A DNA stretch of 64,000 nucleotides from Octopus vulgaris (lineage: Eukaryota), in the NCBI GenBank assembly GCA_951406725.2, contig OX597838.1, positions 44,454,001-44,518,000 on the forward strand, read 5' to 3'. Below the pieces are notes generated by a model. It saw only the letters and a list, made by a program, of their open reading frames with translations. It was not told where the DNA came from and ran no database searches. Of the stretch, positions 218-41,733 are shown in pieces. Both the position numbers and the translations under genes were made by a program. Within the stretch, counting starts at the first letter, position 1. Every line of letters starts with the position of its first letter.

Positions 218-279
218 AGTCTTGTATCACTTGTGATTTCGTACTTACTGCAGTAGCGACCGTACTCATCAGCAAGACT
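218..279 (-). ncRNA. Type I hammerhead ribozyme, canonical core
   Basis: Minus strand reads AGUCUUG-CUGAUGA-GUAC(17 nt)GUAC-GAAA-UCAC-AA-GUGA-UA-CAAGACU. 7-bp helix I, all conserved core bases present, predicted cleavage after AUA (between 225 and 224). Confidence 0.9.
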
Positions 280-388
280 GATTCTGAACATATCATAAAT
301 AAACGACCTCGCACCGTCAAAGCCGAACAGCTATCTGCTCGATTCCAACGAAGCACATGGGGAAGTTTACATATAATACATCCGGTAA

Positions 389-1078
389 ATGGCAGGCTTC
401 TTCGAATTGCATTCGGCTTTCAATTTGGCCGTAAAGACTAATATAGGTAAGGAATTTTTGAGATTAGTCTCTAAGCATTTTAAGCAGGGTCATAAATTCT
501 ACAGAATATTTAATAGAAGAACCCTGAAGGTTAGCTATTCTTGTTGCAGAAATTTCGCCTCTTACATTAGCCAACATAATAAGAAGCTAATTGAGATTAG
601 ACATGGTGCCGAGCCCATTAAGAAATGTAATTTCAAAAACGAAAGCTCCTGTCCGTTAGAAGGGAAATGTCTAGTGAAAGGAGTAGTTTATAGAGCCAAG
701 GTGCAAGTGGAAGGCTCATCGGAATACAAGACATACACAGGGGCTTCAGAAAATTCATTTAAAACAAGATTTTATTCTCATAAAAATTCATTTAAATACC
801 CAGAGAATAGGAAGAAAACCAGCCTAGCAAAATATGTCTGGGAACTAAAAGAAAAGGAAGCCCCACCTTTCAGCGTGACATGGAGCATTCTGGACAGGGC
901 GGCACCATACAGGCATGGAGCTTACAAAAATAATTTCAAGTGCAGGCTTTGTCTATTAGAGAAAATGTACATCTTATTCAAAGACAATAATTCTTTGAAT
1001 CAAAGAAGTGAGTTAATGAACTTATGTAGGCACGCGGCTAAATTTAAAATGTCGAATATAAATATACCATATGGATAG
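389..1078 (+). CDS. C-terminal GIY-YIG endonuclease region of a Penelope-like element (Naiad-like); RT domain missing
   Basis: VKTNIGKEFL..KHF, KIFNR-like, CxFx5Cx5C (degenerate CxCx5Cx5C), VVY..TYTG (GIY-YIG), RFYSHKNSF, CRLCLLEK, NQRSE..CRH. Family homology starts near 415, so the listed Met is probably not a real start. Confidence 0.85.
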   Translation: MAGFFELHSAFNLAVKTNIGKEFLRLVSKHFKQGHKFYRIFNRRTLKVSYSCCRNFASYISQHNKKLIEIRHGAEPIKKCNFKNESSCPLEGKCLVKGVVYRAKVQVEGSSEYKTYTGASENSFKTRFYSHKNSFKYPENRKKTSLAKYVWELKEKEAPPFSVTWSILDRAAPYRHGAYKNNFKCRLCLLEKMYILFKDNNSLNQRSELMNLCRHAAKFKMSNINIPYG

Positions 1079-2157
1079 AGTATATATTTTGTATTTTTGA
1101 TTTTTGATTTTGATTTTGACTCTTGAGCGCTACGATGGATTTTGATTTTGATTTTGTTTTTGTTTTTGTTTTGTTTCCAAACTATGCGGATCTTAATCCG
1201 TATAGCAAAGTCTTATGTTTCTACATATATATTAGGAAAAACCTACAAACTTTGTTTTCATGTTATTGTATTGCATAGGATTACCTTGATTATTTATATT
1301 ACCTTGATTATTTATAAATGACCCAAAATAGGATGTTATATTTTATTTTATATGTCTTTCGTATATATTTTTTATTAATGCACCCATTTTTTAAAAGCAA
1401 TGTTTTTTAAAAAAAGCAATGTTGTCAAAATTATAATGTTTATATAAGTATGTGTATAGCAAAGCATATGTATTTGTAAGCTGCGTATCTGTGTATGTGT
1501 AAGTGAAAGTATGTTTGTGCTTAAGCACACATATACACGACGGTATGTATATGTATCCATCCAAACTTGTGTATGTATACTGGTCTCTATAGATGCCAAT
1601 AACATTGTTACACTGCTTATTTCGTTTTTTTCCCCACCCCTCCTTCATTCCTTTTTCTCTCTCTCCCTTTCTTTCGTTCCCCCTCCTTGCCCAGTATATG
1701 AGAATTGCTACATAGATGAATTTTAGCTTGCGTGCGAGACGGTTTGCGTGAATATATGTACACATGCTTTTATGTGTATATTTAAATTTATATTCATACG
1801 TCTGTATATGTATGTATGGCGTTTACGCGCATCCTTTTGTGTATGTTGATATATATATGTAGATTTTAATATAAATATGTATTGCAGTATTTATAACAGG
1901 TTTAATTTCTATGCATTAATTTGCACTGTCTTCATTAACGTCAATGGTTTTTTCCTCGGATTTTATAATTTTTATAAGTTTTTTATATATAATTTTTATA
2001 AGTTTTTATATATATATACATATATCTTTGGCCTTTTTGTTTATCGCTCGAAGATTGACCGTTTTTTCTAAAGGGCCAATCAAACAAGTCCATTTCTTTT
2101 TAAAGGTGTAGCGTTTGTAAGAGTATAGATTGAATTAATATATAAGTTCCTTTCTAG

Positions 2158-2207
2158 CAAAAACTGTCTGATGAACGGCAACGAGAAACTCAGAGTAACA
2201 GATTTTG
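2158..2207 (+). ncRNA. Minimal type I hammerhead ribozyme near the 3' end of the Penelope-like element
   Basis: CAAAAACUGU-CUGAUGA-A-CG-GCAA-CG-A-GAAA-CUC-A-GAG-UA-ACAGAUUUUG. 9 of 10 pairs in helix I, GUA cleavage triplet, very short helix II. Confidence 0.75.
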
Positions 2208-40300: not shown

Positions 40301-40507
40301 AATAACCCTTTATGGTATCATTATACAAATATTCTATAATTATCAACATAATTATAATCAGGGGTCAGCTAATTGCTTCACCACGCACCGAATTTAGAAA
40401 CAGCAGTTAGAATACTTTTTCCACCACCATAACTATCTCCCAGACCGTAACACACTTTTTTACGCAGGCAAAGAGAAAAAAATAACGAATCCACACGACT
40501 TAGATTA

Positions 40508-40575
40508 GCCACGTACGCGTCTCGGGATTAAAGTAAAGTTTTATTTACTTACTGATGTCACCTCATCAGTGTAGC
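40508..40575 (-). ncRNA. Degenerate type I hammerhead motif
   Basis: Minus strand GCUACA-CUGAUGA-GG..CCC-GAGAC-GC-GUA-CGUGGC; A14->G, palindromic ACGCGU helix III. Confidence 0.5.
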
Positions 40576-41571
40576 ATTTCAAATATAAATTTGAGGGGAT
40601 TAGAATTAAATATGTACGCGTCATCTTATAACTGATATTTCACCAGCTCTTCCCAAAATATACAACAAATATAAAATGTACGTCTACCAAATCCATTCAC
40701 AAGGCTATAGTAGAAAATACTTCAAGATGGTGTCACGCAACTGGCTTGAACTCAGAACAATGTTGTTAGAAAGCAACCTTAATACTACACAGCCACAACT
40801 GCGGCTTTGTATAATTAGCATTCAACGTTCTGTTGTTGGTCACTGAGTACACATATTATATATTATGATGGTTTTATAGCAAACACAAGTATCTATAAAA
40901 GAAGAGAAATTATAAGTTAAACAGTGGATAGTTTCTTATTCTCTCAAGTTTGTATTTAGTAAATCTGTATTTAAATACCATCAAGATTAAATCATGATTC
41001 CTCTACTTTCATGGGTTAATGAAATAAGTGTCATGCCTATACTACCGTGCTAGATTCGATCAATAATCTCAAGTCACAGAACGTAAGAGACATCTAAGAC
41101 AACCGATCAATCGTCGCACTGACAATTTTTTGCAGGCAACAGATCAATAAAATAAATAAGGAAAATTCTTTCATTGAAACAAGTTATGGAAAATTACATG
41201 TAATTCCCAACGTGTGAGTATATACACACACACACACACACACACACACACACACACACACACGTATATATATATATATAAATACACACACACACTGTAT
41301 TTACTTATGTATATATACGAAGGAGAGTCAAAAATTATACGCACTCTACTTTTTCAATGTATCCTCCCTTTTCAATTATATAAACACACACAAACACAAC
41401 CACATACATACATACATACATATATATGTATATATATATATATATATATATATATATATATATATATATATATATATATATATTGTGTGTGTGTGTGTGT
41501 GTGTGTGTGTGTGTGTGTGTGTGTGTGTGTGTGTATATATATATATATATATATATCACACACACACACAA

Positions 41572-41733
41572 ACTCACCGGTAAAATTTCCACTTATTTCT
41601 TATTTCTATTTTCTAAAATTTTCGTTGCGTCTTGCAACCTTATCAATAGTCTTGGCTATTGAAAAGGTTGCAAGACGCAACGAAAATTTTAGAAAATAAA
41701 AATAAAAAACAAGTGGAAATTTAACCGGTGAGT
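41572..41733. repeat. ~160-bp near-perfect palindrome carrying two head-to-head hammerhead-like motifs
   Basis: Arms of about 80 bp pair around a loop near 41652; each strand reads CUA-UUGANAA-G-GUUGC-AAGAC-GCAAC-GAAA-AUUU-UAG. Confidence 0.85.

Follow-up and report, generated by a model that had tools for sequence, protein, structure and literature searches.

The 64,000-nt window analysed here (Octopus vulgaris, contig OX597838.1 of assembly GCA_951406725.2, positions 44,454,001 to 44,518,000) contains nine small hammerhead ribozyme motifs at eight sites, and each site belongs to a repeat family of its own (F1 to F8). We think it probable, from sequence comparison, that these motifs are hammerhead-shaped terminal elements of the eight families, two of which (F2 and F3) are represented by 5′-truncated copies of coding Penelope-like elements (PLEs) with the six others likely to be non-coding dependants or else stubs of further PLEs, and that the motifs are likely to act as slow, dimer-dependent self-cleaving RNAs. 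The elements are repeated, F2 and F3 are linked to open reading frames (ORFs) for a reverse transcriptase (RT) with a GIY-YIG endonuclease, and (TA)n targeting, inversions, one-sided tails and a hammerhead-type pattern of conservation are all seen.

The window is microsatellite-rich with a GC content of 37%, and lies in a genome of 2.8 Gb assembled in 227 contigs. A direct check of its letters confirmed the nine motif positions and the helix III strings given in a preliminary description of this stretch. Contrary to that description, not all cores read CUGANGA: the motif at 2338 reads CUGUAGA, the F8 pair reads UUGANAA, and the window copies at 20570, 33501 and 40508 have changed cores. Excess over chance was measured with a descriptor that requires an exact core (either CUGANGA or the U3-A8 form), at least 3 bp in helix I, a palindromic helix III and UH; it was modelled on the published layout of minimal hammerheads and composed after the candidates were known. 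It found 5 matches in the window vs. a mean of 0.03 in shuffled sequence, and none of 150 dinucleotide shuffles (whole-window and 500-nt block shuffles) reached 5; the reversed window gave no exact-core match with the same descriptor. When one core mismatch was permitted, there were 10 matches vs. 0.8-1.0 in shuffles. Seven of the nine noted motifs were recovered, those at 2338 and 40508 being missed, and three weak extra matches (4026, 12389 and 28932) were treated as chance. A similar excess was seen in a genome sample of sixty 10-kb stretches (600 kb) at hand-picked, round-number positions across the genome, with 23 exact-core motifs vs. 0.65 in shuffles (maximum 3 in 20 shuffles). The density above shuffled sequence that the preliminary description called for is thus present in both samples, and extrapolation from the 600 kb gives about 107,000 exact-core minimal hammerhead motifs genome-wide. 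The idea that the window is a hot spot was rejected, since 5 motifs were seen vs. 2.5 expected (P ~0.10); in this respect it is typical.

Within the window no motif region matches a family other than its own, in agreement with the earlier count of about eight separate families. First-look candidate matches for F1 to F8 numbered 792, 260, 1698, 1615, 589, 978, 429 and 1796, figures that are not copy numbers, and occurrences in the 600-kb sample were 2, 5, 10, 6, 0, 1, 0 and 3, respectively. Apart from F4, the most frequent of the eight in this sample were F2 and F3, which end coding PLEs, partly contrary to the proposal that the motif-bearing elements are mostly non-coding. The same sample contained at least ten further motif families (L254, L261, L268, L270, L273, L276, L286, L294, L304, L306, L310), including U3-A8 forms and head-to-head pairs. 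The families and motifs of the window are collected in Table 1.

Table 1. Motif-bearing elements in the window, with predicted hammerhead motifs (positions are those of the window)
Feature	Positions	Strand	Description
F1	98-413	-	5′-truncated copy; element with non-coding tandem units of 480 bp; (TA)n at 3′ end
F1 motif	218-279	-	Core exact; helix I of 7 bp; helix III Hydra-like; cut predicted between 225 and 224
F2	414-2235	+	5′-truncated copy of a young Hydra-type PLE, unit ~3.35 kb, (TA)n at end
F2 ORF	416-1078	+	C-terminal 220 codons, linker and GIY-YIG-type endonuclease; 98% identity to the RT-bearing ORF of locus L212
F2 motif	2158-2207	+	Core exact; helix II of 2 bp; cut predicted at 2197/2198
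F3	2280-2445	+	3′ stub of a Neptune-type PLE
F3 motif	2338-2373	+	CUGUAGA, U at core position 6 (window 2345), standing family state
F4	20420-20696	+	tRNA-like head (5′ part missing in window copy), (AAT)n, body, hammerhead, optional tail of ~33 nt; no ORF
F4 motif	20570-20613	+	G12 changed to A in window copy
F5	25320-25774	+	Old repeat, ~80% identity; motif 25409-25489, exact core, weak long helix II
F6	33352-33757	-	Repeat; motif 33501-33559, C3 changed to U in window copy
F7	40193-40664	-	Older repeat; motif 40508-40575, A14 changed to G in window copy
F8	41568-41862		Head-to-head pair of a short element; motifs 41613-41649 (-) and 41656-41692 (+), U3-A8 core; long 3′ end only on the + copy

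Core letters are given in the hammerhead position numbering, in which positions 7 and 17 are left free by catalysis. The family-state core is exact (C3-A9, G12-A14, A15.1-U16.1 and H17) in F1, F2, F4, F5, F6 and F7, and F8 has the U3-A8 form. Among the nearest relatives of each window copy, some of whose loci overlap, the core was intact in 28/29 (F1), 29/29 (F2), 16/24 (F4), 13/24 (F5), 20/24 (F6), 15/24 (F7) and 19/24 (F8), and in 23/24 for F3 when position 6 was left free. The changes in the three decayed window copies were mostly absent from their relatives. In all families helices I and II close the core and helix III is palindromic or tiny; helix II is weak or irregular at 2158 (F2), 25409 (F5), 33501 (F6) and 40508 (F7). 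In co-folding, helix III paired between molecules for some motifs but not for F4 or F6; this calculation was uncontrolled and was given no weight.

This architecture is that of the minimal hammerheads published for PLEs, which share the type I topology, the palindromic or tiny helix III, the extra nucleotide after A9, the U3-A8 variant, the many unrelated families per genome, the mostly single truncated copies and the opposite-strand pairs (Cervera and de la Pena 2014, PMC4209133). Since that work already reported such motifs as massive and widespread in metazoan genomes, the notion of a hidden layer is not supported; the numbers reported there are 2,000-9,000, vs. ~1e5 extrapolated here, and its results and discussion do not describe the family-wide U6 and C4 cores discussed below. 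A hammerhead-bearing element of Octopus bimaculoides, Hydra-1_Obim (also written Hydra-1_oBim), is listed in Craig 2021 (PMC8557442), and 31 recently active Penelope-like families are listed for Octopus vulgaris, with no mention of ribozymes in the parts consulted (PMC13282606).

The insertion patterns also point to PLEs. Head-to-head copies were found in 16/29 (F1), 8/29 (F2), 14/24 (F4), 6/24 (F5), 9/24 (F6) and 9/24 (F7) loci, some of them overlapping. Numerous small PLE hammerhead variants were reportedly described by Lunse in 2017 and may already include the present motifs. The suggestion that the elements often land near microsatellites is borne out by (TA)n targeting in most families, but not by F4, which ended in (TA)n in 0/24 loci; within the window alone the association is weak (a microsatellite within 150 nt for 4/8 sites vs. 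27% of random places).

F2 is directly attached to a Penelope RT/GIY-YIG element. Its window copy retains the C-terminal portion of a PLE ORF as an open frame spanning 389-1078, and the break at 414-416, where the window copy is interrupted, is crossed by 10/12 fetched F2 regions. In two of these (L213 and L214), direct motif pairs flank the ORF at spacings of 3,350 and 3,364 bp, accompanied by an inverted truncated copy; in the tandem copy at L214, the predicted cut in the upstream terminal repeat lies ~175 nt before the first Met. The ORF of F2 relatives has RWK, DKT and YRDD motifs, a CxC-X5-C linker and a GIY-YIG domain without an internal cysteine pair, and a search with the protein returned 3,199 relatives; Pfam did not recognise the F2 RT. 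These motifs and linker, together with tandem terminal repeats bearing a hammerhead, inverted truncated copies and a (TA)n target, are those by which Craig 2021 (PMC8557442) defines the Hydra clade, and by these features F2 is a Hydra-type PLE. Its 3′ end lay in (TA)n in 26/29 loci. The family is young, its motif copies being 99% identical. The 3′ end has a short and a long form, with an optional tail of ~70 nt, and the inverted pairs listed have one of each. In helices I and III the F2 motif closely resembles Hydra motifs from the literature, and coral motifs are nearly identical there (Craig 2021 supplement, PMC8557442). F2 nevertheless differs from described Hydra elements in this tail, in its 2-bp helix II, in a motif sequence distinct from that of Hydra-1_oBim, and in its unit of ~3.35 kb, Hydra elements being generally <3 kb (PMC8557442).

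F3 is likewise tied to a PLE enzyme. Its motif is joined to an RT and GIY-YIG frame at L361, and a 1,047-codon open frame at L403 contains DKG, YIDD, CX4CxxC and the GIY-YIG cysteines. When loci were collected with the F3 endonuclease protein, the motif lay 264-873 nt downstream in 26/30 (one locus being the query); 25/26 of these were U6 and none A6. The GIY-YIG domain match had an E-value of 0.0014 and fell below the Pfam cut-off. The C-terminal CCHH-type GIY-YIG domain, the CX2-5CxxC linker, DKG and YIDD, together with the (TA)n that follows the F3 3′ end in 44/52 loci, are shared with Neptune-clade PLEs, and F3 is a Neptune-type element as judged by ORF features, Nematis elements also having a linker finger. 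The F3 ORF (L403, L361) often stays open through a 3′ region of low complexity that is rich in pyrimidines, and long Pro/Ser/Leu tails result. At ~5767-5850 (+) of L361, an exact-core hammerhead of another family stands just ahead of the 5′-truncated Neptune-type copy.

What distinguishes F3 from other Neptune-type elements, besides the lack of head-to-head copies in 52 loci, is the U at core position 6. Exact 27-letter counts across the genome gave 15,730 matches for U6 and 180 for A6, with 164 for all three changes at A9 combined. Position 7 was C or G in ~30% of U6 copies, far above this A9-change background. To avoid selecting on the motif, 58 copies were chosen by their 3′ tail alone, 13 of which were dropped by a strict filter. 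Among the remaining 45, position 6 was U in 43, position 7 was U in 19, A in 18, G in 5 and C in 3, and position 17 was A in 31, U in 11, C in 1 and G in 1. No non-CpG motif column (0/20) had a minor letter at ≥10%, vs. 15/46 flank columns (Fisher P 0.003, or 0.026 at 15%; the P values are rough, as columns are not independent). A separate A6 subfamily was considered and rejected: most of the 18 A6 loci listed share flanks with U6 subfamilies, which suggests that many A6 copies are probably later changes. It should be noted that the A6 count of 180 is still ~3-fold above the one-letter background (164/3).

The U6 core, and a related change in a sister family, raise the possibility that these hammerhead-derived motifs no longer cut in the large families (F3, the sister, perhaps F5-F8) and that their fold persists because the PLE enzyme uses it as a signal for binding or priming. 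This is the main rival to a self-cleaving role, and we hold it rather unlikely. In its favour, each of two large sister lineages is altered at a different U-turn position, conservation of loop II in F3 equals that of the core, Naiad PLEs have spread without canonical hammerheads (Craig 2021, PMC8557442) and published PLE motifs are weak cleavers in vitro. Strong loss of activity in Mg2+ has been reported for position 6 changes (PMC7151607), and natural A6C and U4C hammerheads are rare and slow (Perreault 2011; PMC7151607). Some activity is nonetheless kept by both variants, A6C being harmful with a kobs <0.1/min (Perreault 2011), and the letters that vary in F3, positions 7 and 17, are exactly those that catalysis leaves free, while G8, A9, G12, A13 and A14 are fixed across divergent subfamilies. 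The core changes of the two very large families would be expected to slow cleavage. Our literature search found no report of a hammerhead with an A6U core.

F1 resembles a different class of ribozyme-bearing element. It consists of 480-bp units with one motif each and no ORF, which lie between (TA)n tracts as inversions or as short arrays running head to tail; a direct second copy was present in 15/29 loci. Metazoan retrozymes lacking long terminal repeats (non-LTR) are likewise non-coding head-to-tail units of 170-400 nt, every unit carrying a single type I hammerhead (Cervera and de la Pena 2020, PMC7229834), and F1 and similar short families could be such retrozymes, spreading via circular RNA by rolling reverse transcription with no need of a single PLE partner. 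This proposal is compatible with the terminal-element reading, but we judge it unlikely: the longest F1 arrays seen were less than two units, the motif is Hydra-like, and F1 has inversions of PLE type, targets (TA)n and ends 3′ in either of two ways. F1 also has a larger unit than the published retrozymes (PMC7229834).

F4 combines a transfer RNA (tRNA)-like head with a PLE-type hammerhead. We found 24 heads, 19 of which were followed by the body; 18 have an A-box region, 16 of these being ungapped and fitting the 73-nt tRNA numbering. The ungapped heads have U33 in 16/16 and A37 in 15/16, with A and B boxes at tRNA spacing, the box letters being partly imposed by the search motifs. Rfam returned no tRNA match, and ARAGORN found no tRNA in the window and made a few relaxed calls, amid false ones; the stems are partly broken. 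In the unselected 600 kb, head and body occurred together in 4/8 loci matching F4. Inverted copies include the head, and in 11/11 inverted pairs (two of them probably one duplicated locus) the ~33-nt tail stood at exactly one end, a one-sidedness described as a PLE trait (Craig 2021 Fig. 2 legend, PMC8557442). These patterns make F4 a likely tRNA-headed passenger using the Penelope machinery. The SINE-like (short interspersed element) Sm-alpha and Sj-alpha of schistosomes are similar in lacking an ORF and in carrying a type I hammerhead behind a head of polymerase III type; F4 differs in its minimal PLE-type motif, in its PLE-type inverted insertions with a one-sided tail and in being dispersed rather than tandem. 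Our literature search found no description of a tRNA-headed SINE with a PLE-type hammerhead. Three octopus SINEs were reportedly described by Ohshima and Okada in 1994. Downstream of F4, an Rfam match to U5 at 21510-21608 (+) scored 37.9 bits (cut-off 40), and may be a U5 pseudogene or chance.

F5, F6 and F7 may be either stubs of coding PLEs or dependants. An inverted 5′ fragment of F6 lies at 33767-33831. F8 had 1,745 exact matches; a 24/24 inversion count for this family is biased by the palindromic query and was not used.

Several results weigh against self-cleaving terminal elements moved by PLE enzymes. The best Rfam Hammerhead_1 score was that of F1 at 219-278, 17 bits (E-value 0.21) against a cut-off of 34, the motifs at 2158 (F2) and 2338 (F3) and one F4 copy had no hammerhead match, and none appeared among the matches listed (150 of 240) in a whole-window search, whose top rows were microsatellite artefacts. 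The preliminary description had also linked PLE-type minimal hammerheads to Penelope RT/GIY-YIG proteins. The motif type is indeed present in many families and the enzymes are attached to F2 and F3, but 1.5-kb flanks of F1, F4, F5, F6, F7 and F8 yielded no attached PLE ORF (for F4, 25 loci, with no genome-wide partner search made). F1 arrays run on across two motifs, with 5′ breaks that are not clustered at the predicted cut. F3 is fixed for U6 although changes there are reported to be harmful, and no head-to-head copies were seen in its 52 loci. Its sister family (e.g. L261, L282, L370) has 11,312 exact matches, with C4 in 76 of the first 100 among the matches listed. In F8, C3 stood opposite A8 in 8 of the first 100 among the matches listed, a mismatch that would also fit the loss of cutting considered above, and C3-G8 in none.

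The blunt head-to-head junction of F1 and F2 at 413/414 belongs with these points. Both elements have short 3′ ends there, and no other F1/F2 junction was found in the fetched loci of the two families. A single-event origin was dropped as evidence, same-family inverted pairs of F1 and of F2 having one long and one short 3′ end; the junction, being unlike such pairs, provides no evidence for shared mobilisation. Either a deletion between two insertions or a mixed-template event may have produced it. Finally, it is very improbable that AT-rich repeat DNA has produced these motifs by chance: the descriptor was post hoc, four motifs have a poor helix II and Rfam made no call, but the excess over shuffles, the absence from reversed sequence, the fixed place near element 3′ ends and the architecture of published PLE motifs refute it for F1-F4 and F8, leaving F5 and F7 least secure.

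Other retroelement traces lie further along the window. A 531-codon open frame at 52269-53864 (-) has an RT domain (Pfam RVT_1, E-value 2.5e-31) and is presumably a fragment resembling CR1-type long interspersed elements (LINEs). A 264-codon frame at 61940-62734 (+) has a zinc knuckle (zf-CCHC, E-value 6e-5) and is perhaps an ORF1 or gag remnant. The 10 kb before the window (L370) contain a Mariner-type transposase at 5129-6025 (+), an RT-like fragment with YVDD at 2664-3395 (+) and a copy of the C4 sister motif.

If the motifs are indeed self-cleaving terminal elements, transcription would run through a tandem copy or by read-through, and two palindromic helices III would pair to form the dimer. 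Cleavage in the upstream terminal repeat would set the RNA 5′ end and release a unit-length RNA, from whose 3′ end the PLE enzyme would prime and copy at (TA)n or AT-rich targets; because copying would usually end early, most insertions would be short stubs. F1 and F4, having no ORF, would borrow a PLE enzyme, whose identity for F1 and F4-F8 we infer, and transcription of F4 by RNA polymerase III would begin at the tRNA-like head. Sequence 3′ of the cut site is retained in inserted copies, which suggests that their templates had escaped cutting at the 3′ motif or had been rejoined. Slow cores such as U6 in F3 and C4 in its sister may therefore be tolerated or favoured.

Abundant minimal hammerheads are already known and ordinary; new as variants are the family-wide cores with U6 or C4 and the dependant that has a tRNA-like head. 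We tentatively propose, as a possibility somewhat short of even, a Neptune-type lineage at tens of thousands of copies with a working U6 hammerhead beside a C4 sister, selection having weakened their cores and thereby spared the 3′ end used for priming, together with a tRNA-headed polymerase III SINE whose PLE-type hammerhead goes with mobilisation by a Penelope-like enzyme instead of a LINE. The role of the hammerhead in PLEs has been called unclear (Craig 2021, PMC8557442). Sister lineages that differ at single core letters (A6/U6 and U4/C4), with more than ten thousand exact copies each, constitute an experiment of nature in how far transposition depends on the rate of cleavage, and a SINE moved by a PLE, if true, would widen the known pairs of SINEs and their partners.

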